Shown: positions 273 to 13,257 of the stretch, one piece after another
Numbering within the stretch: position 1 is the first letter of the stretch
How the letters are laid out: each line of letters opens with the position of its first letter
Source: a virus
Taxonomy: Duplodnaviria; Heunggongvirae; Uroviricota; Caudoviricetes
Reading direction: 5' to 3' (one strand)
DNA: 14,242 nt
Virus record (IMG/VR): IMGVR_UViG_3300029567_000055
Coordinates: 1-14,242 of that record
Made by a program: the position numbers and the translations under genes
The notes under the pieces: generated by a model
Seen by the model: only the letters and a program-made list of their open reading frames with translations
Databases searched by the model: none
What the model was told of the DNA's origin: nothing

Positions 273-455
273 ATGAGCAGAAAACACTGGACACACAGAA
301 TGCCGCGAACGGCGGCGAAATGGGCACTGGTAGCGATACTGGTGCCTTTTTTATTGGTGGGATGCGTCAGCCTGGATAAGGCGCGCCAGCTTTTCGATAC
401 GGCTTCTCAGGTCTGCGAAATTGTTGACGGTGTTCGGCAGTGTCTGCAGAACTGA
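273..455 (+). CDS. Small lipoprotein (~60 aa precursor, ~30 aa mature), function unknown; lysis-cassette associated
   Basis: ATG at 273 follows AGGTG (264-268). The N-terminus MSRKHWTHRMPRTAAKW is basic, followed by a hydrophobic core ALVAILVPFLL and a lipobox L-V-G-C. The mature part has two more Cys. An alternative start is the ATG at 300 (MPRTAAKW). Confidence 0.5.
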   Translation: MSRKHWTHRMPRTAAKWALVAILVPFLLVGCVSLDKARQLFDTASQVCEIVDGVRQCLQN

Positions 456-3725: not shown

Positions 3726-3736
3726 CCGAGGGCATT

Positions 3737-3919
3737 ATGTTTCTGATAATTCTCACGCCACTGGTGGGCGTGCTGGGGGCGCTTTTGCTGGCGTATGGCG
3801 CCTGGCTGATTTATCCCCCGGCAGGTTTTGTTGTTGCCGGGGCGCTGTGTCTGTGCTGGTCGTGGCTGGTTGCGCGTTATCTCGATCGCGGTCACCGGGT
3901 CGCCTCTGGAGGTGAGTAA
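3737..3919 (+). CDS. Small membrane protein, 2 predicted TM helices (60 aa), unknown function
   Basis: ATG at 3737 follows GAGGG (3727-3731). The translation shows two hydrophobic helices ([23 protein letters not shown] and [17 protein letters not shown]) and a charged tail. Its TAA overlaps the portal ATG (TAATG at 3917-3921), indicating translational coupling. Confidence 0.5.
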
Positions 3920-5160
3920 TGTTTTTCCAGGGGCTTTTTCAACGCAAAAATAACACCCCCGTCACAACGCCCGGGATGCTTGCGGAAGAGCTGGGGTTGT
4001 CATACGACACCTATACCGGAAAGCGGATCAGCAGCCAGCGGGCCATGCGGCTGACGGCGGTCTATTCCTGCGTCAGGGTGCTGGCTGAGTCTGTTGGTAT
4101 GCTGCCCTGCAGTCTCTACAAAATCAGCGGCACCCTTAAAACACGGGCGGTGGATGAACGGCTGCATAAGCTGATTTCGGCAAAACCCAATGGCTACATG
4201 ACGCCGCAGGAATTCTGGGAACTGGTTATCGTCTGCCTGTGTCTGCGGGGTAATTTTTACGCCTACAAGGTAAAGGCACTGGGGGAAGTGGTGGAGCTTC
4301 TTCCGATAGATCCGGGCTGTGTGGAACCGAAGCTGAACAGCCAGTGGCAGCCGGTTTATCAGGTGACGTTTCCGGATGGTTCCGTGGATGTGCTGACCCA
4401 GAATGAAATCTGGCATGTGCGTACCCTGACGCTGGATGGACTTGTCGGTCTGAATCCCATTGCATATGCGCGCGAGGCCATTTCACTGGCAGCGGCAACC
4501 GAGGAGCATGGTGCCAGATTGTTTGGCAATGGCGCGGTAACATCCGGTGTGTTGCGTACGGATCAACAACTTTCTGACCAGGCTTATGCGCGTATCAAAA
4601 AGGATTTTGAGGAACGGCATGTCGGGCTGGGAAACTCTCATCGTCCGATGATTCTGGAAATGGGGCTGGACTGGAAAACGGTGGCACTGAATGCCGAGGA
4701 CAGCCAGTTCCTGGAAACCCGCAAGTTTCAGCTGGAAGAAATCTGTCGCCTGTTCCGCGTGCCGCTGCATATGGTGCAGAACACCGATCGCGCCACCTTC
4801 AACAATATTGAAGAGCTGGGGCTTGGTTTCATTAACTATTCCCTTGTGCCGTATCTGACCCGTATTGAGCAGCGGATCAATACAGGGCTGGTCAGGGAGA
4901 GCAAGCAGGGAAAATTTTACGCCAAGTTTAATGCCGGAGCATTGTTGCGTGGCGACATGAAATCCCGCTTTGAAGCGTATGCCACGGGGATCAACTGGGG
5001 GATTTATTCCCCTAATGACTGCCGTGATCTGGAAGATATGAATCCCCGACCGGGCGGTGATGTGTATCTGACACCGATGAACATGACCACCAGTCCCTCT
5101 GCTGGCGATGACAACGGTAAGAAAAAGGAGAGTGGAGATGCAGACAAAACAGCGTCTTGA
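3919..5160 (+). CDS. Portal protein, HK97 family
   Basis: A 413-aa ORF immediately after terL in the canonical position, with the size and sequence character of HK97-family portals. Its 3' end overlaps the protease gene. Confidence 0.85.
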   Translation: MFFQGLFQRKNNTPVTTPGMLAEELGLSYDTYTGKRISSQRAMRLTAVYSCVRVLAESVGMLPCSLYKISGTLKTRAVDERLHKLISAKPNGYMTPQEFWELVIVCLCLRGNFYAYKVKALGEVVELLPIDPGCVEPKLNSQWQPVYQVTFPDGSVDVLTQNEIWHVRTLTLDGLVGLNPIAYAREAISLAAATEEHGARLFGNGAVTSGVLRTDQQLSDQAYARIKKDFEERHVGLGNSHRPMILEMGLDWKTVALNAEDSQFLETRKFQLEEICRLFRVPLHMVQNTDRATFNNIEELGLGFINYSLVPYLTRIEQRINTGLVRESKQGKFYAKFNAGALLRGDMKSRFEAYATGINWGIYSPNDCRDLEDMNPRPGGDVYLTPMNMTTSPSAGDDNGKKKESGDADKTAS

Positions 5161-5788
5161 TATACCGCTGAACCTGAAATCCGTCAGTGATTCCGGGGAA
5201 TTTGAAGGTTACGGTTCTGTTTTTGGTGTTAAGGACAGCCACGATGATGTGGTGGTCCCCGGAGCCTTTACCACAACACTCCAGAAATGGAGCGAAAAAA
5301 AGGCGCTGCCTGCGTTGCTCTGGCAGCACCGCATGGATGAGCCCATCGGTGTGTACACCGAAATGAAAGAAGATGATGTCGGGCTTTATGTCAGGGGACG
5401 ATTACTCATTGATGATGATCCCCTGGCAAAACGTGCACATGCCCATATGAAGGCCGGTTCTTTAACCGGCCTTTCTATTGGCTACATCCTGAAAGACTGG
5501 GAGTACGACCGGGAAAAAGGGGTATTCCTGCTGAAAGAGATCGACCTGTGGGAGGTCAGTCTGGTGACGTTTCCTTCCAATGATGAAGCACGCATCAGCG
5601 ATGTGAAAAATGCGCTGGCGCGTGGGGAGATCCCTGATCAGAAAATTATTGAGCGGGTCCTGCGCGATGTTGGACTCTCGCGAACCCAGGCCAAAGCATT
5701 CATGGCCGGGGGATATGGCGCTTTATCCCTGCGTGATGCTGAGGATGTGGATGCCGCACTGAATGCACTGAAAAATCTTAAATTTTAA
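5138..5788 (+). CDS. Prohead maturation protease, HK97 family (S78/U35)
   Basis: ATG at 5138 follows AAGGAG (5126-5131). The product MQTKQRLDIPLNLKSVSDSGEFEGYGSVFGV.DSHDDVV.PGAF is the characteristic N-terminus of HK97-type prohead proteases. The gene lies between portal and capsid. Confidence 0.85.
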   Translation: MQTKQRLDIPLNLKSVSDSGEFEGYGSVFGVKDSHDDVVVPGAFTTTLQKWSEKKALPALLWQHRMDEPIGVYTEMKEDDVGLYVRGRLLIDDDPLAKRAHAHMKAGSLTGLSIGYILKDWEYDREKGVFLLKEIDLWEVSLVTFPSNDEARISDVKNALARGEIPDQKIIERVLRDVGLSRTQAKAFMAGGYGALSLRDAEDVDAALNALKNLKF

Positions 5789-5801: not shown

Positions 5802-7028
5802 ATGGCTGTTGATATTAAAGACGTTGAACAGGTCGCGCAGGATTTGCAGCAGAAGTTTGACGATTTTAAGGCAAAAAACGACAAGCGCATTGACGCGATC
5901 GAACAGGAAAAAGGCAAGCTGGCCGAACAGGTGGAAAGCCTGAACGGGCAAATCAGCGAGCTGGAGAACCTGAAAAGCGACCTGGAAAAAGAGCTGGCAG
6001 ACATCAAGCGTCCGGCAGGCGGCACGCAAAATAAAGTTGCCGGTGAACACAAAGAAGCGTTTATCGGATTTATGCGCAAGGGGCGTGAAGACGGTCTGCG
6101 TGAACTTGAACGTAAGGCGCTTCAGGTAGGTAATGATGAAGATGGTGGTTATGCCATTCCGGAAGAACTGGATCGTACCATCCTGACGCTACTGAAAGAT
6201 GAGGTGGTGATGCGCCAGGAAGCCACTGTGATCACCCTCGGTGGCTCGGATTATAAAAAACTGGTGAATCTGGGCGGCACAACGTCCGGATGGGTGGGGG
6301 AAACGGATGCTCGTCCGGAAACCGCCACCTCAAAACTGGGTCTGATTGAACCCTTTATGGGGGAAATCTACGGCAACCCGCAGGCCACCCAGAAAATGCT
6401 CGATGATGCTTTCTTCAATGTGGAAGACTGGATCAACAGTGAGCTGGCGCTGGAATTTGCCGAGCAGGAAGAAATTGCCTTTACCAGTGGCGACGGCAGC
6501 AAAAAACCAAAAGGTTTTCTGGCTTACGAGTCCACCGATGAAGATGACAAGACCCGTGCGTTTGGCAAACTTCAGCACATTGCTTCCGGTGCGGCTTCCG
6601 GCGTGACTGCCGATGCGATCATTAAACTGATTTACACCCTGCGCAAGGCGCACCGCAGCGGCGCGAAGTTTATGATGAACAACAGCAGCCTGTTTGCCAT
6701 TCGTCTGCTGAAGGATAACGACGGAAATTATCTGTGGCGTCCGGGTATTGAGCTGGGTCAGCCTTCTTCTCTGGCAGGGTATGGCATCGTTGAGAATGAA
6801 CAGATGCCGGATATTGCTGCCGATGCAAAAGCCATTGCGTTTGGTAACTTCAAACGTGGCTATACCATCGTTGATCGCATCGGTACCCGTATCCTGCGCG
6901 ATCCGTACACCAATAAACCGTTTGTGGGTTTTTACACCACCAAGCGAACCGGCGGTATGCTGGTGGATTCTCAGGCGATTAAGCTGATGAAAATTGGGGC
7001 CGCAACCCGCCAGAAAGCCGCTGCGTAA
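5802..7028 (+). CDS. Major capsid protein, HK97 fold, with N-terminal coiled-coil delta (scaffold) domain
   Basis: ATG at 5802 follows AGGAG. The first ~100 aa are heptad-rich and charged (DLQQKFDDFKAKNDKRIDAIEQEKGKLAEQVESLNGQISELENLKSDLEKELADIK). The remainder has the size and composition of an HK97-type capsid protein. No separate scaffold gene is present. Confidence 0.9.
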   Translation: MAVDIKDVEQVAQDLQQKFDDFKAKNDKRIDAIEQEKGKLAEQVESLNGQISELENLKSDLEKELADIKRPAGGTQNKVAGEHKEAFIGFMRKGREDGLRELERKALQVGNDEDGGYAIPEELDRTILTLLKDEVVMRQEATVITLGGSDYKKLVNLGGTTSGWVGETDARPETATSKLGLIEPFMGEIYGNPQATQKMLDDAFFNVEDWINSELALEFAEQEEIAFTSGDGSKKPKGFLAYESTDEDDKTRAFGKLQHIASGAASGVTADAIIKLIYTLRKAHRSGAKFMMNNSSLFAIRLLKDNDGNYLWRPGIELGQPSSLAGYGIVENEQMPDIAADAKAIAFGNFKRGYTIVDRIGTRILRDPYTNKPFVGFYTTKRTGGMLVDSQAIKLMKIGAATRQKAAA

Positions 7029-7040
7029 TGCGGTTTTTTA

Positions 7041-7062
7041 TGCCCGCACAGTGTTGCGGGCA
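7041..7062 (+). promoter_or_regulatory. RNA stem-loop immediately upstream of the connector-gene RBS (8-bp stem tgcccgca/tgcgggca, 6-nt loop)
   Basis: A perfect 8-bp inverted repeat at 7041-7048 and 7055-7062. The 3' arm abuts GGAG (7063-7066) and the ATG at 7073. A weak ccgc/gcgg stem plus T6 (7018-7039) lies just upstream, spanning the capsid stop codon. Confidence 0.35.
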
Positions 7063-7072
7063 GGAGTTTCTG

Positions 7073-7398: not shown

Positions 7399-7737
7399 AT
7401 GCAGGCGGGCAGATTACGTGATCGCGTAACTATTCTGAATGTCACCACCGTCCGTTCTCCGTCAGGGCATCCGGTGGAGACAATGACGGAGGGGGCAACC
7501 GTATGGGCAGAAGTTAAGGGGATCAGCGGGAGGGAGAGAATATCAGGAGGTGCAGAAACCGCTCAGGCTACGGTCAGAGTCTGGATGCGATTTCGGCGCG
7601 ATGTGACAGCGACTTCACGTCTGAAAGTGCTGACCGGTGCATTTAAAGGGGTCACTCTTGGTATAGAAGGGCCACCAATACCGGATGCACGCGCCACCCG
7701 GCTTGAAATGCTCTGCAGTCTGAAGGGGAATGTGTGA
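7399..7737 (+). CDS. Head closure / head-tail joining protein (Phage_H_T_join type)
   Basis: ATG at 7399 follows GGAGG. The product MQAGRLRDRVTI...VWAEVKGISGRE...RVWMRFRRDV...RLEMLC fits the head-closure family profile. Its stop overlaps the next gene's start. Confidence 0.7.
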   Translation: MQAGRLRDRVTILNVTTVRSPSGHPVETMTEGATVWAEVKGISGRERISGGAETAQATVRVWMRFRRDVTATSRLKVLTGAFKGVTLGIEGPPIPDARATRLEMLCSLKGNV

Positions 7738-8183
7738 TGGATTTCAGTCTTGATTTTTCAGGTCTGGCGGATATTGCACGGGATCTGGAGACGCTCAGCA
7801 GGGCAGAAAACAATAAGGTTCTGCGCGATGCCACCCGTGCCGGTGCTGAAGTTATGCGGGATGCAGTTGTTGAACGTGCGCCGGAGCGAACCGGGAAACT
7901 GAAGAAAAATGTGGTTGTTCTCACGCAGCGTTCAAAGCGTCGGGGGGAAATTATCTCGGGTGTCCACATTCGCGGACGGAACCTGCGAACCGGAAACAGT
8001 GATAACAGCATGAAAGCCAGCGATCCCCGAAATGCGTTTTACTGGCGCTTTGTGGAGCTGGGAACGATAAACATGCCCGCGCATCCGTTCATTCGCCCGG
8101 CTTTCGATACGACAGAGGAACTGGCAGCACAGATTGCCATACAGCGAATGAATCAGGCTATTGATGAGGTCTTAAGTAAATGA
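7737..8183 (+). CDS. HK97 gp10-family protein (neck / tail-completion component)
   Basis: ATG at 7737 overlaps the upstream TGA (7735-7737); a GTG at 7734 is an alternative start. The motifs ...RAPERTGKLKKNVVV... and ...YWRFVELGTINMPAHPFIRPA are characteristic of the HK97 gp10 family. Confidence 0.75.
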   Translation: MDFSLDFSGLADIARDLETLSRAENNKVLRDATRAGAEVMRDAVVERAPERTGKLKKNVVVLTQRSKRRGEIISGVHIRGRNLRTGNSDNSMKASDPRNAFYWRFVELGTINMPAHPFIRPAFDTTEELAAQIAIQRMNQAIDEVLSK

Positions 8184-8524
8184 GGGAAGCCACACTGTAT
8201 TCCCTGCTGTCTCAACTGGCCGGAGGACAGGTTTATCCTTATGTGGTCCCGCTGACGGAGGGAAAGCCTGCGGTATCTCCGCCGTGGCTGGTGTTTTCTG
8301 TGGTGTCTGACACGGCGTCTGATGTGCTTGATGGTCAGGCTGAATCCAGAATTACCGTGCAGATCGATGTCTGGGCAACAGTACCTGATGACGCAGATGA
8401 TATCCGTGAGCAGGCGCTTGATGCGGTAAGGCAACTTGCACCCTCCGTTATTTCTAAAACTCAGGGTTATGATCCTGATTCCCGTCTGAGCAGAGCCACG
8501 CTTGAATTTCAGGTAATAGCCTGA
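8180..8524 (+). CDS. Tail terminator / tail-completion-like protein (DUF3168 or gpU-like, tentative)
   Basis: ATG at 8180 overlaps the upstream stop (ATGA). The 114-aa product lies between the neck genes and the major tail gene, the position occupied by U-like tail terminators. The family assignment is by position and size. Confidence 0.5.
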   Translation: MREATLYSLLSQLAGGQVYPYVVPLTEGKPAVSPPWLVFSVVSDTASDVLDGQAESRITVQIDVWATVPDDADDIREQALDAVRQLAPSVISKTQGYDPDSRLSRATLEFQVIA

Positions 8525-8544
8525 GGTCGTTAATGATTTTACCC

Positions 8545-8571
8545 ACCCGCCGCTGGCGGGTTTTTTATTTT
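8545..8571 (+). terminator. Intrinsic (rho-independent) terminator
   Basis: A GC stem cccgcc (8546-8551) / ggcggg (8555-8560) with loop gct, extended by a45:t61, followed by TTTTTTATTTT (8561-8571). It lies in the gap between the DUF3168-like gene and the major tail gene. Confidence 0.6.
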
Positions 8572-8583
8572 CAGGAGACGAGT

Positions 8584-9288
8584 ATGTCCTCTAATTTTGA
8601 GCGTTCGCAACTGACGAAAATTATGATTTCGTCTGCACCGGTAACAGCAGAAACCCTGGATTCTGCCAGCTATCTTGGCCTGAGCTGTACAATCAAAGAG
8701 GTGCAGTTTACCGCAGGACAAAAGCAGGATATTGATGTCACCACGCTGTGTTCTGTTGAGCAGGAAAATATTAACGGCCTTGGTGCCGCGTCAGAGATTT
8801 CCATGTCAGGCAACTTTTACCTCAATGCTGCCCAGAACGCGTTGCGCAGTGCCTATGACAATGACACCACGTATGGCTTTAAAGTTATTTTTCCGTCAGG
8901 CAACGGATTTACCTTTATGGCAGAGGTGCGTCAGCATACCTGGTCTGCAGGAACTAATGGTGTTGTGGCTGCAACGTTTTCCCTGCGCCTGAAAGGTAAA
9001 CCTGTGCTGACGACAGAGCCGCTGAAAGTGAAGGTCGATTTAAACAGCACGCTGCAGGTTTCTGCCGGAGCGAAACTCGAAATGGTGGTTGAGGCTGCCG
9101 GTGGTGTGCCGCCTTATTCTTATGTCTGGAAGAAAGGTAGTTCTCCTGTTTCCGGACAGACGGCGGCAACATTCAGTAAGGCATCAGCAGCATCAGGTGA
9201 TGCCGGTGCGTATACCTGCGAGATTTCTGATTCAGCAAGCCCTGTTAACAAGGTGACCTCCACTTCCTGCACTGTTACCGTCAGTTAA
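8584..9288 (+). CDS. Major tail (tube) protein with C-terminal Ig-like domain
   Basis: ATG at 8584 follows CAGGAG (8572-8577), downstream of the terminator. The N-terminal ~150 aa are tail-tube-like. The C-terminal ~90 aa (LQVSAGAKLEMVVEAAGGVPPYSYVWKK...GDAGAYTCEISD...CTVTVS) has the I-set/Big-like Ig signature (W...Y.C). Confidence 0.75.
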   Translation: MSSNFERSQLTKIMISSAPVTAETLDSASYLGLSCTIKEVQFTAGQKQDIDVTTLCSVEQENINGLGAASEISMSGNFYLNAAQNALRSAYDNDTTYGFKVIFPSGNGFTFMAEVRQHTWSAGTNGVVAATFSLRLKGKPVLTTEPLKVKVDLNSTLQVSAGAKLEMVVEAAGGVPPYSYVWKKGSSPVSGQTAATFSKASAASGDAGAYTCEISDSASPVNKVTSTSCTVTVS

Positions 9289-9302
9289 TGAGGATAGATG
9301 TG

Positions 9303-9674
9303 ATGACTAAAAATATCCGCAATCTGGCACTGGCAACGATGTCGGGGTTTCGCCATAAAACTGTTGATGTGCCTGAATGGGAAGGGGCAACGGTTGTATT
9401 ACGGGAACCTTCTGCAGAAGCCTGGTTGCGCTGGCAGGAGATCGTTAAAGCAAAAGATGATGAGACACCGTTATCCGTTGCGGAGCGCGCCCGCCGAAAT
9501 CTGGAGGCAGATGTTGAACTGTTCATTGATGTTCTGTGTGATACCGGACTGCAACCTGTATTTTCAGAGGATGATCGTGAACAGGTGATTGCCGTGTATG
9601 GCCCGGTGCATGCGCGGCTTCTTCGGCAGTCTCTGGAACTGATCAGTGATGCCGGCGAGGTTAAAAAAAAGTAG
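9303..9674 (+). CDS. Tail assembly chaperone (lambda G-like), frame-0 product
   Basis: ATG at 9303 follows AGGAT (9291-9295); an in-frame ATG at 9288 overlaps the upstream stop. The ORF ends ...EVKKK-TAG at 9672-9674, directly on an A8G slippery run. It lies immediately upstream of the tape measure gene. Confidence 0.75.
   Translation: MTKNIRNLALATMSGFRHKTVDVPEWEGATVVLREPSAEAWLRWQEIVKAKDDETPLSVAERARRNLEADVELFIDVLCDTGLQPVFSEDDREQVIAVYGPVHARLLRQSLELISDAGEVKKK
9665..9671 (+). promoter_or_regulatory. Programmed -1 ribosomal frameshift slippery heptamer A_AAA_AAG (G/GT-type)
   Basis: Frame-0 codons are AAA(9666-8) AAG(9669-71) TAG. The -1 frame is blocked by TAA at 9662-9664 but open from 9665 to 9976, so a slip on this heptamer fuses the chaperone to the downstream ORF. 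Confidence 0.65.
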
Positions 9675-9976
9675 AGCTTCCGGGGATGCGTTTTCTGATG
9701 ATGCTGGCGCTCAGGATGGGGCGCACATTGTCAGAGTTACGCCGGGAAATGTCCGCATCAGAAATCATGATGTGGGCAGAATTTGACAGGTACAGCCCGC
9801 TGGGTGACGAGCGGGCTGATATCCGGGCTGCCCAGATAGTTTCTGCGGTTTACGGTGCGCAGGGTGTCAAAGTCCCACTGAATGATGCGCTTCTTCAGTG
9901 GGAACAAGAGCAGACAGAAGGCGTCTCAGATCCATTTGCCGGACTGGAAAACGCGCTTTTAATAGTGTCTCAGTGA
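9665..9976 (+). CDS. Tail assembly chaperone frameshift extension (lambda T-like part of a G-T fusion)
   Basis: This is the -1 frame relative to the chaperone, open 9665..9976. It has no Shine-Dalgarno of its own before the first ATG at 9686. The predicted fusion junction is ...EVKKK-K-VELPGMRFLMM.... Confidence 0.6.
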   Translation, partial: KKVELPGMRFLMMLALRMGRTLSELRREMSASEIMMWAEFDRYSPLGDERADIRAAQIVSAVYGAQGVKVPLNDALLQWEQEQTEGVSDPFAGLENALLIVSQ

Positions 9977-9984
9977 GTCAACAT

Positions 9985-10006
9985 AACCGCTTCGGCGGTT
10001 TTTTTC
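9985..10006 (+). terminator. Intrinsic terminator with UUCG tetraloop
   Basis: Stem aaccgc (9985-9990) / gcggtt (9995-10000) with loop ttcg, followed by a T-run through 10005. It lies between the G-T extension stop (9976) and the tape measure start. Confidence 0.6.
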
Positions 10007-10015
10007 GTCCGGAGA

Positions 10016-13000
10016 ATGAGTGTGGCGACATTACGTGAACTGATTATTAAAATCTCGGCAAATTCCCGGTCATTCCAGTCAGAGATCTCCCGGGCTTCGC
10101 GTATGGGGCAGGATTACTACCGTACCATGCAGAACGGAGGCCGGCAGTCCGCTGCTGCATCCCGTGAAATGCGGCGTGCACTGGCAGAAGTGACGGATCA
10201 GATAAATACAGCTAAATCTTCGGCACTGAATATGGCGGGGGCATTTGCCGGAGCTTTTGCTACNNNNNNNNNNGTCATCTTATTTCTCTCGCCGATGAGT
10301 GGAATTCAGTAAATGCCCGTCTGAAGCAGGCTTCACAGTCCAGTGATGATTTTCAGGTATCACAACGTGAATTAATGGCAATCAGCCAGAGAACGGGAAC
10401 GGCGTTTTCTGATAACGCCAGCCTTTTTGCCCGCTCTGCAGCTTCCATGCGGGAGTATGGCTACAGTTCTGAGGAGGTACTGAAAGTCACCGAGGCGATC
10501 TCCACGGGCCTGAAATTATCCGGTGCCAGTACAGCAGAAGCCAGTTCGGTGATCACGCAGTTCAGTCAGGCACTGGCGCAGGGAGTGCTGCGCGGTGAAG
10601 AATTTAACTCTGTGAATGAGAACGGCGATCGTGTTATTCGTGCGCTGGCTGCGGGAATGGGTGTTGCCCGTAAGGATCTGAAGGCCATGGCGGATAACGG
10701 AAAACTGACCGCCGATAAGGTTGTTCCTGCACTGATTAGTCAGCTTGGGGCGTTGCGTGATGAATATGCAGCAATGCCTGATACTGTTTCATCCTCTGCA
10801 ACCAAAGTTGAAAACGCCTTTATGGCCTGGGTTGGTGGTGCGAACGAGGCAAGCGGAGTGACAAAGACACTCACCGGGGTGTTGAATGGTGTTGCAGACA
10901 ATATTGATACCGTGGCTGCTGCAGCTGGCGCACTGGTTGCCGTCGGGGTAGCCCGATATTTTGGCAATATGGCGTCGTCTGCTGGATCTGCAACTGCCGG
11001 ATTAATTACTGCAGCCAGAAACGAAGTGGCTCTTGCTGAAGCGCAACTTCGGGGGACACAGATAGCAACCGCCAGGGCGCGTGCGGCGGTTTATCGTGCG
11101 CAACAGGCGGTTGTTGCTGCTCGCGGTACCGAAAGGCAGGCCGCAGCAGAAGCGAAGCTGACAGCTGCCCAGGCGTCACTTACCCGTAATATTGCGGCCA
11201 GAACAGCGGCACAGACAACGCTGAATACTGTCACGTCAGTGGGGAGTCGTCTGTTAAGTGGTGCGCTGGGGTTGGTTGGTGGTGTGCCGGGACTCGTCAT
11301 GCTGGGGGCGACGGCCTGGTACACGATGTATCAGAATCAGGAGCAGGCCAGAGAATCTGCACGCCAGTATGCCGCAACAATCGACGAAATTCGCCAGAAA
11401 ACGTCGGCAATGTCGCTTCCTGAAGCGTCAGATAATGAGGAAAAGACGCGGCAGGCACTTGATGAGCAAAACAGGTTAATTGACGAGCAGAAAAGTAAGA
11501 TTAAATCCTTACAGGAAAAAATTGCTGGCTATCAGTATGTGCTGGCAAACCCGGGCTGGACAACCGATAACGGTTTTATGATTAACCACATGACGTCGGT
11601 AAAAACTGTCACAGAAGGGCTTGCAGAAGCAACAAATCAACTGGCAGTTGAACAGTCCCGTCTCACACAAATGCAGGGCAAAGCGCAATCCATTCAGGAT
11701 GTGCTTGCCGGGCTGGAGGAGCGACGGGTGGCGTTGATCCGTCAACAGGCCGCGGAACAAAACAAAGCGTATCAGTCCCTGTTGATCATGAATGGGCAGC
11801 ATACCGAGTTTAATCGCCTTCTCGGGCTCGGTAATGAATTACTTCAGCAGCGACAGGGGCTGGTGAATGTACCGTTACGGCTACCACAGGCAACCCTGGA
11901 TGATAAACAGCAGACCGCACTGAATAACAGCGAGCGCGAACTGGCTCTGTCCCGCCTGAAGGGGGAAGCCCGTGAGCGTGCCCGCCTGGGTTATGCTGCG
12001 GATGATCTCGGCTTTGTGGGAGAGGCGTATCAGACAGCCAGACAGAATTATATCAATAACTCACTGGATGCCTGGCGAAATAACCAGGCAAATAAACCCA
12101 AAGCGCATAAAAAGACCGAAGCGGAAAAAACAGAAGATATTTATAAACGGCTGATTAAACAGCAAAAAGAACAAATAGCACTGGCAGGGCAGAATACTGA
12201 ACTGGCTAAGATGAAATATCAGGTCAGTCAGGGCGAATTATCAACCCTGTCAGAAGCGCAGAAAAAAACGCTTTTGCAGAATGCAGCACTCATCGACCAG
12301 AAAAAGATTCGTGAGCAGCTTGCTGCGTATGAGAGCAGTCTGGCGGACAGTAATGCCAGTGCCCGGGCATCTGACGACGCGCAGTTGCTGGGATATGGTG
12401 AAGGCTCACGGATGCGTGAACGACTCCAGGAAATGTGGAGTATCCGGCAGACGTTTGAGCAGAAAAATAACGAACTGCTGAGACAGTATCAGGCCGGAGA
12501 AATTGAAGAAGCCCTGTGGAAACAGGAGAAAGAACTGAATAAAAAATATCTGGAAGAGCGTCTCAGCGATCAGCAGGATTATTATGCAAAGGCCGATGCT
12601 TTACGTAATAACTGGAATGCCGGACTCCAGGAAGGACTGACCAACTGGGCAGACAGTGCCACCGATTATGCTTCACAGGCGGCAGATGCTGTCGTTTCCA
12701 CGATGGACGGGCTGGTATCAAATATTTCCGATGCACTGGCCGGGAATGTTGTGGAGTGGAGGAACTGGGGGAGTTCAGTTCTCCGGGAAGTTTCAAAAAT
12801 TCTGATGAATGCAGCCATTGTTAACGGACTGAAATCACTCTCCGGTGCCGGAGGGTGGCTTGGTACGGTCGGCGGATGGATTTCGGGGGCGGTGGCAAAC
12901 GCAAAAGGTGGTGTTTACACATCGGCAAATCTGAGTGCTTACAGTAACACTATTGTGGATACACCGACGTATTTTGCTTTTGCGAAAGGTGCCGGGCTGA

Positions 13001-13257
13001 TGGGTGAGGCCGGGCCTGAAGCTATCATGCCACTGACACGGGCAGCGGACGGCTCTCTTGGGGTCAGAGCCATTGGCAATGTGAATGGTGGCGGTGGATT
13101 TGTTTATTCTCCCGTGTATCACATCAGCATTCAGAATCAAGGGAGCAATGGCGAGATAGATACGCGCTCAGCCAGGGGACTGGTGGATCTGATCGACAGC
13201 AGGGTTGTGTCAATTATGCAGTCATCGCGTCGGGATGGAGGATTATACAGTGCCTGA
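10016..13257 (+). CDS. Tail tape measure protein (lambda H-like), interrupted by a 10-N assembly gap
   Basis: ATG at 10016; a GTG at 10022 has better spacing from GGAG (10011-10014). The frame after the gap is open from the Ns through the listed 10375 start, reading ...HLISLADEWNSVNARLKQASQSSDDFQVSQRELMAISQ.... The product is long, Ala/Gln-rich and coiled-coil in the middle. The C-terminal part (...NWADSATDYASQAADAVVSTMDG...GGLYSA) resembles the lambda gpH C-terminus. The ORF track's 10016..10312 and 10375..13257 pieces are one gene. Confidence 0.8.
10264..10273. other. Assembly gap (run of 10 N)
   Basis: A literal nnnnnnnnnn in the sequence; the true length is unknown. The apparent frame change across it is therefore uninformative. 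Confidence 0.95.

Follow-up and report, generated by a model that had tools for sequence, protein, structure and literature searches.

Why would a late operon that is expected to be read by an antiterminated polymerase keep terminator-like hairpins between its tail genes? The window (the whole stretch of 14,242 nucleotides analysed here) is a lambdoid E. coli prophage with a head and tail module of the HK97 type, and it raises this question before the major tail gene and again before the tape measure gene. Both the Q gene and the late promoter lie outside the window; a prophage 98% identical to it has an annotated Q antiterminator about 3.5-4 kb upstream of the window-equivalent start. Read-through, as expected in an earlier note on this DNA from the lambdoid paradigm, is therefore a reasonable assumption. 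In this HK97-like lambdoid prophage, which probably has one Q-dependent late operon, both elements lie in the operon's non-coding spacers, and we consider it likely that they are Rho-independent terminator signals kept there by selection.

Two hairpins in the spacers of the tail module

From the end of the capsid gene to the tape measure gene, we located the following features.

7017-7040, plus strand: hairpin across the capsid gene stop codon, followed by T6; -12.8 kcal/mol, the third such element
7042-7065, plus strand: second hairpin, TGCCCGCA-CAGTGT-TGCGGGCA, without a U-tract, abutting the Shine-Dalgarno of the head-tail connector gene
8180-8524, plus strand: tail completion/tail terminator gene (PF11367, E=5e-11; homologue of HK97 gp11, 51% identical by blastp)
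8545-8561, plus strand: hairpin 1, ACCCGCC-GCT-GGCGGGT, a 7-bp stem with 6 G-C pairs and a GCU loop
8561-8571, plus strand: U-tract of hairpin 1, TTTTTTATTTT (T6AT4), ending 2 nt before the Shine-Dalgarno AGGAG
8584-9288, plus strand: gene for the major tail (tube) protein, which has an Ig-like domain at its C-terminus and is 71% identical to HK97 gp12
9303-9674, plus strand: tail assembly chaperone G (PF06222, E=2e-58)
9665-9671, plus strand: slippery heptamer A_AAA_AAG for a -1 frameshift into the T frame, from the sequence and its frames
9671-9976, plus strand: T extension of the G-T fusion, in the -1 frame (PF06223, E=3e-19)
9985-10000, plus strand: hairpin 2, AACCGC-UUCG-GCGGUU, a 6-bp stem with 4 G-C and 2 A-U pairs and a C(UUCG)G tetraloop
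9999-10005, plus strand: U-tract of hairpin 2, T7 (T8-T9 in many relatives)
10022-13257, plus strand: tape measure gene with GTG start at 10022 (Pfam PF20155, PF06120, PF09718)

The Pfam matches bear out the gene assignments (tail completion, tail tube, G, T and tape measure). In the 98% identical relative, PGAP labels the 8180-8524 gene 'tail completion protein gp17', and in the HK97 record the homologue of G-T has an annotated -1 frameshift. An apparent frameshift in the tape measure gene was rejected, as it reflects a run of 10 Ns at 10265-10274, the sole interruption of this gene in the window. Between the capsid and tape measure genes three gaps exceed 40 nt (7029-7072, 8525-8583 and 9977-10021), and each of them has a hairpin.

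Hairpin 1 begins 20 nt past the tail completion TGA (8522-8524), which opens its intergenic gap, and folds with -12.6 kcal/mol, the MFE and centroid structures being the same. Twelve nucleotides separate the end of its U-tract from the major tail ATG (8584), with the Shine-Dalgarno AGGAG at 8574-8578. The sequence confirms the hairpin and U-tract that the earlier note had placed at 8545-8571 before the major tail gene, and the folding-energy check that we ran makes its word 'strong' a fair one for this element. Hairpin 2 begins 8 nt past the T-frame TGA (9974-9976), ahead of the tape measure GTG at 10022 and of the corresponding Shine-Dalgarno GGAG (10011-10014). Its position after G-T and before the tape measure gene had been given correctly, as had the UUCG tetraloop, whose closing pair is C-G. 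For a centroid terminator fold of -7.8 kcal/mol with 4 G-C and 2 A-U pairs, however, the word 'strong' is generous. The weakness of hairpin 2 counts against a terminator reading, as does its competition in the window with a rival fold of -11.0 kcal/mol, in which its 3' arm pairs with the tape measure Shine-Dalgarno. Relatives are without this alternative fold, and 35 of 36 retain the terminator hairpin; therefore, we do not build any reading on it.

Both elements consist of a G+C-rich, short-loop hairpin with a 3' U-tract in a non-coding spot past a stop codon, and with stem, U-tract and position in place their description as canonical signals of the intrinsic-terminator type inside the late operon holds. 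The reverse strands of both hairpins have no U-tract after the stem, so both elements face one way only, with the operon. A promoter scan found no promoter-like site adjoining either hairpin, nor one downstream that might make read-through unnecessary; the window has 9 such sites against a shuffle mean of 10.9, i.e., fewer than expected. Rfam 15 gave no match at gathering score over the whole window.

Terminator-like patterns may also arise by chance, or hairpin 1 might encode part of an N-terminally extended tail-tube protein. The frame from an upstream ATG at 8533 is open in the window and would make hairpin 1 coding, and the record of phage Evi uses this start. On the other hand, the T-run of hairpin 1 varies from T6 to T8 among close relatives, 1-nt indels in it break the frame from 8533 in at least 31 of 81 near-identical relatives, and both PGAP and the HK97 annotation start the tail-tube gene at the downstream ATG 8584, which has the AGGAG Shine-Dalgarno. 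Judging from these sequences, the long Evi-type start at ATG 8533 is wrong.

As for chance, both focal hairpins appear in the consensus terminator scan, which in a lenient form returned 26 sites versus 14.5 +/- 3.6 in shuffles. A stricter score, combining hairpin energy with the U-tract and taking dinucleotide shuffles as background, gave four matches on the plus strand of the whole window and none on the minus strand, compared with 0.01 per shuffle; the focal sites scored 44 (the best of the window) and 14.7. The scanner's d-score, in the style of d'Aubenton-Carafa, was taken as a ranking statistic only, for which shuffles, the minus strand and the coding background provided the calibration. 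Two further stringent matches, at 323-346 (where the longest terminator-like hairpin of the window spans 322-347) and at 5452-5471, lie within coding sequence, which tells that false positives occur and that the pattern by itself is no proof. However, with the frame-breaking indels, the rarity in shuffles and the conservation of the element in distant relatives (described below), we consider chance or coding hairpins extremely unlikely, and as far as sequence goes this reading is refuted.

Conservation at the major tail junction and the HK97 precedent

We surveyed 78 diverse prophage and phage loci from many genera of Enterobacterales, with chaperone identities of 40-70%. Matches concentrate at discrete gene junctions, with 181 on the plus strand versus 15 on the minus strand, and 177 of the former are found outside coding cores (2.25/kb vs 0.0097/kb). 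A terminator-like hairpin precedes the major tail gene (site 1) in 71 of 78 loci and the tape measure gene (site 2) in 46 of 75, while 38 of 74 loci have one after the capsid gene. Directly after the major tail gene the count falls to 17 of 78, and in the window the 14-nt gap between the tail-tube and chaperone genes has no hairpin at all. The idea that the two elements bracket the most abundant tail component, advanced in the earlier note, is weakened by these figures. The Xenorhabdus lineages, with their compact junction, do not have site 1, and in Serratia phage OS31 it is split by an IS element.

The site-1 hairpins comprise 48 distinct sequences, with stems including CCCGCC, CCGCC, GCCGCC, GCTGC, CCACC and GACCGC, and UNCG loops in 35 of 71; the U-tract accompanies the hairpin nearly everywhere in the survey. 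RNAalifold on MAFFT alignments recovered no consensus pairs at site 1 and only 4 at site 2, as loop-length variation shifts the register, and it was therefore replaced by loop-anchored pair counts and a z-score folding test. In the pair counts, single site-1 stem positions show several Watson-Crick pair types. In the folding test, which provides a non-circular check on site 1, the 60 nt past the tail-terminator stop had a mean z of -1.56 relative to their own shuffles, compared with -0.30 for mid-gene controls (p=9.5e-11). Considering the strand bias, the changing stems, the rarity in shuffles and the non-coding position, we conclude from the sequence comparison that both elements are intrinsic-terminator-type signals under selection.

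The same data bear on whether the hairpins are recombination linkers, i.e., conserved sequences that offer short homologies for mosaic exchange and are not RNA signals. In relatives with a 100% identical chaperone, mosaic joints do coincide with hairpins: the same downstream genes are joined to any of three different sequences before site 2, and to either of two capsid alleles before the capsid-end site. However, one would see joints at gene boundaries in any case, since other recombinants do not survive, and the stems vary widely by lineage while pairing, U-tract and strand are kept, which indicates selection on RNA or terminator structure and not on DNA sequence. We therefore regard linkers as a very improbable explanation.

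Neither element is new. The HK97 record (NC_002167) lists, among its GenBank features, putative terminators at 5192-5213, 6692-6719, 7443-7462 and 8398-8422, and the HK446 and HK542 records have 'rho-independent terminator' features at equivalent junctions. In these three phages terminators are annotated behind the major head gene, on both sides of the major tail subunit gene (which follows the tail terminator gene) and ahead of the tape measure gene. HK97 has the gene order and junctions of the window, with flanking proteins 51-71% identical. Hairpin 1 of the window shares with HK97 the CCCGCC/GGCGGG stem and the flanks, including the downstream CAGGAGAC, whereas site 2 of the window is only positionally equivalent, the sequence of hairpin 2 being different. 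HK97 also differs in having a terminator after the major tail subunit gene and a gene-15-type moron before its site 2, which the window is without. An HK97 terminator is annotated at the position matching the 7017-7040 element; the HK97 capsid gene is a different allele from that of the window (26% identity), and in relatives the alternative capsid allele has its own hairpin followed by T7. Both elements of the window are probably positional homologues of the putative HK97 terminators, with site 1 apparently a sequence homologue as well. Since they are already annotated in the HK97 reference and common in relatives, the finding is genuine but ordinary. Our literature search found no RNA data or experimental terminator mapping for the HK97-like phage group; the EHEC Term-seq papers deal with tR' (StxS) and with HnrS, an sRNA of the late region, and have nothing on tail-gene junctions.

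Site 2 and moron insertion

Morons are inserted genes that bring their own promoter and terminator; the term was first defined for gene 15 of HK97, which lies between the chaperone and tape measure genes (PMC3594210). Hairpin 2 occupies this classical moron site, like the gene 15 locus of HK97; the window differs in that the moron is absent, with only 8 nt between the T stop and the hairpin. No ORF is found between the T stop (9976) and the start of hairpin 2 (9985), and hairpin 2 does not count as a moron terminator here. In sister prophages with an identical chaperone, by contrast, a moron lies directly upstream of the same hairpin 2. Two of them (L054 and L081) have the identical hairpin after the moron ORF, and in sister prophages this hairpin closes a 114-aa membrane/zinc-ribbon ORF, while an analogous one closes a lipoprotein ORF in others; altogether, a hairpin ending the inserted upstream gene was found in four sister loci (L054, L081, L074 and L063).

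Across the survey, a site-2 terminator is present in 27 of 30 loci with an inserted gene versus 19 of 45 without (Fisher p=3e-5). Its lack in 26 of 45 relatives without a moron shows that site 2 is dispensable, and its retention in the other 19 indicates that it is either ancestral to the morons or a remnant of moron loss. The moron link in relatives lends indirect support, at the level of sequence, to a role of hairpin 2 as a barrier in the lysogen.

Possible roles of the two elements

Actual termination, its efficiency, read-through under Q and the physiological role are what we infer from these patterns. We propose that a polymerase not loaded with Q at the late promoter would allow the G+C-rich hairpin to form in its exit channel, pause on the U-tract and let go of the transcript shortly ahead of the next gene's ribosome-binding site. 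Polymerases of this kind could be ones that started spuriously in the lysogen and, at site 2, those transcribing morons in sister prophages. During lytic growth, Q-modified polymerase would ignore both signals, so that the tail genes would still be made. Residual termination, together with hairpins that remain at the 3' ends of decayed RNAs, might have a secondary effect on relative mRNA levels. One finding counts against such a fail-safe: site 1 lies just upstream of the gene for the most abundant tail protein in more than 90% of relatives.

Similar signals are found in other phages. Lambdoid late operons (lambda Q/tR', phage L/P22) likewise have an intrinsic signal inside an operon with a single antiterminated promoter. 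In phage L/P22 a terminator lies at the end of the procapsid module inside the late operon, and of such elements it is stated that the 'roles are not known', with partial termination or the stopping of non-antiterminated transcription as candidates (PMC8022706); this phage differs in its podovirus structural module, the window having an HK97-like siphovirus tail. The two functions suggested in the earlier note, tuning of stoichiometry and a barrier to spurious transcription in the lysogen, are thus published speculation on lambdoid late-operon terminators (PMC8022706). In SPP1, stem-loops delimit late gene clusters (PMC6316719).

Tuning of expression during lytic growth is compatible with the terminator reading that we prefer. 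The elements would be partial terminators, 3' exonuclease barriers or processing boundaries, giving the capsid, tail-tube and chaperone mRNA segments different abundances or half-lives. In HK97 and relatives they do flank the two most abundant structural genes (capsid, 38/74; tail tube), stable UNCG tetraloop hairpins are frequent, and partial termination is named as a possible role in the phage L paper (PMC8022706). Moreover, inefficient terminators that balance expression are documented in T7 and seen in Pseudomonas phages (PMC9163698): T-phi of T7 and further leaky terminators that follow major capsid genes are also hairpins with a U-tract beside the genes of the most abundant structural proteins, and their substantial read-through is a way of balancing expression. 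However, T7 has its own polymerase and no processive antiterminator, unlike the phage of the window, in which strong suppression of termination is expected from Q-type antitermination. T7-type sites follow the abundant gene, whereas the best conserved site here precedes it, the downstream one being infrequent in the survey and absent from the window. Furthermore, the U-tract is kept with the hairpin, which fits the need of a terminator and is not required by a mere nuclease barrier. We therefore hold tuning as a main role to be possible but rather unlikely.

On the side of translation, the hairpin and the unstructured U-rich tract, a few bases ahead of the Shine-Dalgarno, might insulate the de novo tail-tube and tape measure starts, as a standby or S1-binding platform, their likeness to a terminator being secondary. 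U-rich leaders enhance translation in E. coli, and the tail-tube and tape measure genes are the only ones in the block that start after a true gap, the others overlapping or being coupled. The distance from the hairpin end to the Shine-Dalgarno is a near-constant 12-14 nt in correctly parsed loci, and the MFE fold of the read-through leader retains the terminator hairpin in 63 of 63 site-1 sequences; automatic start picks were often wrong, at an ATG inside TTTTTTATG, and for this test we used the hairpin-retained counts and the spacing mode. Yet genome compaction and common descent explain the constant spacing equally well, hairpins of the same architecture also stand after morons and after the capsid gene, with no highly expressed gene next, the tape measure is a low-copy protein, and Xenorhabdus relatives do without the element. 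Overall, a primary role in translation initiation seems quite improbable to us.

A related view concerns site 1 by itself: its hairpin and U-tract might not be primarily a terminator but a conserved leader element by which the output of the tail tube is set. Cleavage in the AU-rich stretch immediately before it might leave it as a 5' stabiliser, or it may offer ribosomes a standby or S1 platform. We consider this view doubtful. It builds on the occurrence of site 1 in about 90% of HK97-like prophages, in many Enterobacterales genera and independently of morons. If it were true, the balance of head to tail proteins would be set at the RNA level in the HK97-like family, in contrast to lambda, for which purely translational control has been described.

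Returning to the terminator reading, we attach little weight to the elements as a discovery: they have stood in the HK97 reference annotation from the time it was published, and the literature recognises terminators inside lambdoid late operons as a common feature. They are rather useful background on the HK97-like family, in which site 1 is near-universal and site 2 tracks moron insertion, and in practice they may help in annotating gene starts and in recognising moron insertion sites.

Gene order and hairpins of the late region

Sequence comparison identifies the 14.2-kb window as part of a lambdoid E. coli prophage, of which it represents the late region. A prophage adjoining potC in strain CEA224S shares 98.2% identity with the full length of the window, and induced coliphages, among them vB_EcoM-606R7, Evi and phi467, are 95.7-98.2% identical to it over 8100-10400. 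The CEA224S prophage is annotated with an integrase, a CI/Cro-type region, RusA and a "bacteriophage antitermination protein Q", the latter lying about 3.5-4 kb upstream of the equivalent of the window's start and followed by holins and an endolysin. The gene order of the window is as follows.

Genes of the window
First genes, + strand: end of the endolysin gene, then a small lipoprotein-like ORF, then an HNH endonuclease
After the HNH endonuclease, + strand: P27-type small terminase, large terminase, portal, HK97-family protease
5802-7028, + strand: major capsid protein
Up to 8524, + strand: four head-tail joining genes, the last being tail completion gp17 (8180-8524)
8584-9288, + strand: tail tube gene
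9303-9674, + strand: tail assembly chaperone G
To 9976, + strand: T, the -1 frameshift extension of G
From GTG 10022, + strand: tape measure gene

With their HK97 counterparts, the tail proteins share 51-71% identity. The G-T frameshift site (9665-9671), immediately 5' of the G stop codon, is the dnaX-type heptamer A_AAA_AAG instead of the G_GGA_AAG of lambda. A run of 10 N at 10265-10274 stands where relatives have the two bases CG, and makes the tape measure gene appear as two ORFs (10016-10312 and 10375-13257). We regard this run as an assembly gap or masking artefact and reject the possibility of a pseudogene.

The earlier note had placed two strong intrinsic terminators before the tail tube gene (site 1) and between G/T and the tape measure gene (site 2). 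Both positions were exact and were also recovered by a consensus scan. The expected stability was confirmed for hairpin 1 (ACCCGCC-GCU-GGCGGGU followed by U6AU4; 8545-8571), which is the sole dominant structure of its neighbourhood at -12.6 kcal/mol. Hairpin 2 (AACCGC-UUCG-GCGGUU followed by U7; 9985-10005), on the other hand, reached only -7.8 kcal/mol and faces a competing fold of -11.0 kcal/mol, in which its loop and 3' arm pair with the tape-measure Shine-Dalgarno (CUUCGG/CCGGAG; 9990-10014). This competing fold is confined to the window and its z-score is not significant; among the site-2 sequences of relatives, the terminator hairpin is kept in the minimum free energy fold of 35 of 36 distinct sequences. 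On the opposite strand, neither hairpin is followed by a U-tract.

A stricter score was built from the hairpin energy per nucleotide and a weighted U-tract and served as a ranking statistic only. It returned four + strand matches and no - strand match, against 0.01 in dinucleotide shuffles. The two sites scored 44, the best of the window, and 14.7. The remaining two matches (323-346 and 5452-5471) fall within coding sequence, a caution that the motif is no proof by itself. Between the capsid and tape measure genes, only three gaps exceed 40 nt (7029-7072, 8525-8583 and 9977-10021), and all three contain hairpin elements.

At the 3' side of the capsid gene (7017-7065) there are two neighbouring hairpins, the first spanning the TAA stop and followed by T6, the second (8-bp stem, no U-tract) abutting the Shine-Dalgarno of the connector gene. 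In relatives with another capsid allele, the same second hairpin is preceded by a hairpin of their own with T7. A 60-aa ORF (273-455) just 3' of the endolysin gene, which has a lipoprotein signal (…LLVGC…) and may encode a spanin component, contains the longest terminator-like hairpin of the window (322-352), with an 11-bp stem, -19 kcal/mol in context and a following T6. This hairpin would be either a false positive within coding sequence or a terminator that overlaps a lysis gene.

We also considered whether hairpin 1 is coding. An ATG at 8533 is in frame with the tail tube gene, the frame being open through the hairpin in the window, and the phage Evi record starts its major tail protein at this upstream ATG (Evi 9431), adding 17 residues that the terminator hairpin would encode. 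However, of 81 near-identical relatives, at least 31 have this frame broken by an extra T in the T-run or by the deletion of a nearby base, and both PGAP and the HK97 record place the start at the downstream ATG, preceded by an AGGAG Shine-Dalgarno. Therefore, hairpin 1 is non-coding, and the indels show that the upstream start in Evi is wrong.

Conservation in related phages and prophages

Such elements have been annotated before. The HK97 reference record lists four "terminator, putative" features within the late operon: after the major head gene, between gp11 (tail terminator) and gp12 (major tail subunit), after gp12, and between moron gene 15 and the tape measure gene. At these junctions, the HK446 and HK542 records likewise have "rho-independent terminator" features. 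At site 1, HK97 aligns with the window: the CCCGCC/GGCGGG stem and the CAGGAGAC that follows the U-tract are shared, and only the loop differs; at site 2, the position is equivalent but the sequence is different. Both elements are thus of a kind for which the type phage of the family already has annotations, and at site 1 the homology extends to the sequence.

We compared 73 prophage loci anchored on G (40-70% identity) from one-genome-per-species bacterial assemblies (Enterobacter, Klebsiella, Serratia, Pectobacterium, Xenorhabdus, Proteus, Morganella, Providencia, Yersinia, Pantoea and others), joined by six annotated phages. Terminator-like matches were strongly biased towards the + strand (181 versus 15) and, when placed relative to the start of G, fell into a few sharp clusters, with almost none elsewhere; 177 of the 181 lay outside coding cores, a 230-fold difference in density. 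Site 1, from the tail-terminator stop to the tail-tube start, had a match in 71 of 78 loci, and in one further locus (L151) the hairpin is present but was overlooked by the U-tract rule. Matches were also found between G/T and the tape measure gene (46/75), where the head-tail connector block begins after the capsid gene (38/74) and 3' of the tail-tube gene (17/78). The earlier note had suggested that the elements, placed around the abundant tail tube gene, tune stoichiometry. This idea may hold but fits the layout poorly, since the most conserved element is upstream of that gene, while the downstream one is infrequent and absent in the window.

Site-1 stems are widely divergent, with 48 distinct hairpins, single stem positions occupied by C-G, G-C or U-A, or by G-C, A-U, C-G or U-A, and UNCG tetraloops in 35 of 71. 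Because these hairpins had been picked by a hairpin finder, we ran a second test by synteny only, comparing the 60 nt 3' of the tail-terminator stop with their own shuffles and with mid-gene controls: the mean z was -1.56 versus -0.30 in the controls (Mann-Whitney p=9.5e-11). The U-tract accompanies the hairpin nearly everywhere, which is the signature of a terminator and not merely of a stable stem. At site 2, a few lineages have decayed U-tracts beside the hairpins and many others a compact junction without any element. This comparative evidence suggests that the terminator-like structures are under selection.

The distance of the hairpin and its U-tract from the Shine-Dalgarno is nearly constant (12-14 nt), and the element could also act in the tail-tube leader as a module for translation initiation or stability; however, compaction and common descent explain this spacing equally well.

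Two rearrangements were observed at site 1. In Serratia phage vB_SspS_OS31, reported as an isolate, an IS150-family element (1268-2708 of locus L087) sits within the UCCG loop of the hairpin, in opposite orientation and in the middle of the late operon (CCGCC-TCCG|IS|TCCG-GGCGG-T7), the 4-nt loop being duplicated as target-site repeat. In an IMG/VR relative (L006), the equivalent of 8525-8561 is in tandem duplicate, as two copies of GGTCGTTAATGATTTT(A/C)CCCACCCGCCGCTGGCGGG, the first lacking the U-tract.

Morons at the tape measure junction

In IMG/VR prophages with a G protein 100% identical to that of the window, the sequence 5' of hairpin 2 takes three forms. In the window, hairpin 2 directly follows the T stop. 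In prophages L054 and L081, this same hairpin is separated from T by an ORF (3729-4073) of 114 aa, whose product has two predicted membrane segments and a zinc-ribbon-like CxxC...CxxC motif. Prophages L074 and L063 (3703-4074) have a lipoprotein-like ORF of 113-123 aa between T and the tape measure gene, followed by another hairpin (CCGC-AGAA-GCGG with U7) and another tape-measure ribosome-binding site. Two unrelated morons thus show presence/absence polymorphism at the equivalent of 9977-9984, the position held in HK97 by gene 15, the first "moron". Superinfection exclusion, by analogy with HK97 gp15, would be the obvious guess for their function.

Morons are defined by their own promoter and terminator, and are hence expressed from a repressed prophage (PMC3594210). 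A terminator-like match just 5' of the tape measure gene was found in 27 of 30 loci with an insert longer than 150 nt versus 19 of 45 without insert (Fisher p=2.8e-5). Since inserts go with such matches, hairpin 2 would be either a resident terminator used by incoming morons or a remnant after moron loss.

Possible roles in the prophage

The two hairpin-plus-U-tract signals, three with the capsid-end element, lie on the sense strand of a one-promoter late operon; they are conserved in position with covarying stems, and the near-identical prophage has a Q gene. RNA polymerase not modified by Q would terminate at these signals, while Q-modified polymerase would read through them, following the established lambda paradigm (PMC7547250, PMC8022706). 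The phage L genome paper gives two options for such elements, partial termination or the stopping of transcription begun without antitermination (PMC8022706), and these are the two functional ideas of the earlier note. The observation of the earlier note is confirmed by our sequence analysis, and its interpretation is a reasonable proposal but not original. We consider it most likely that the primary role of the elements is to keep non-antiterminated transcription, for instance from spurious starts or morons, out of the tail genes of the prophage, with a possible secondary effect on mRNA levels during lytic growth.
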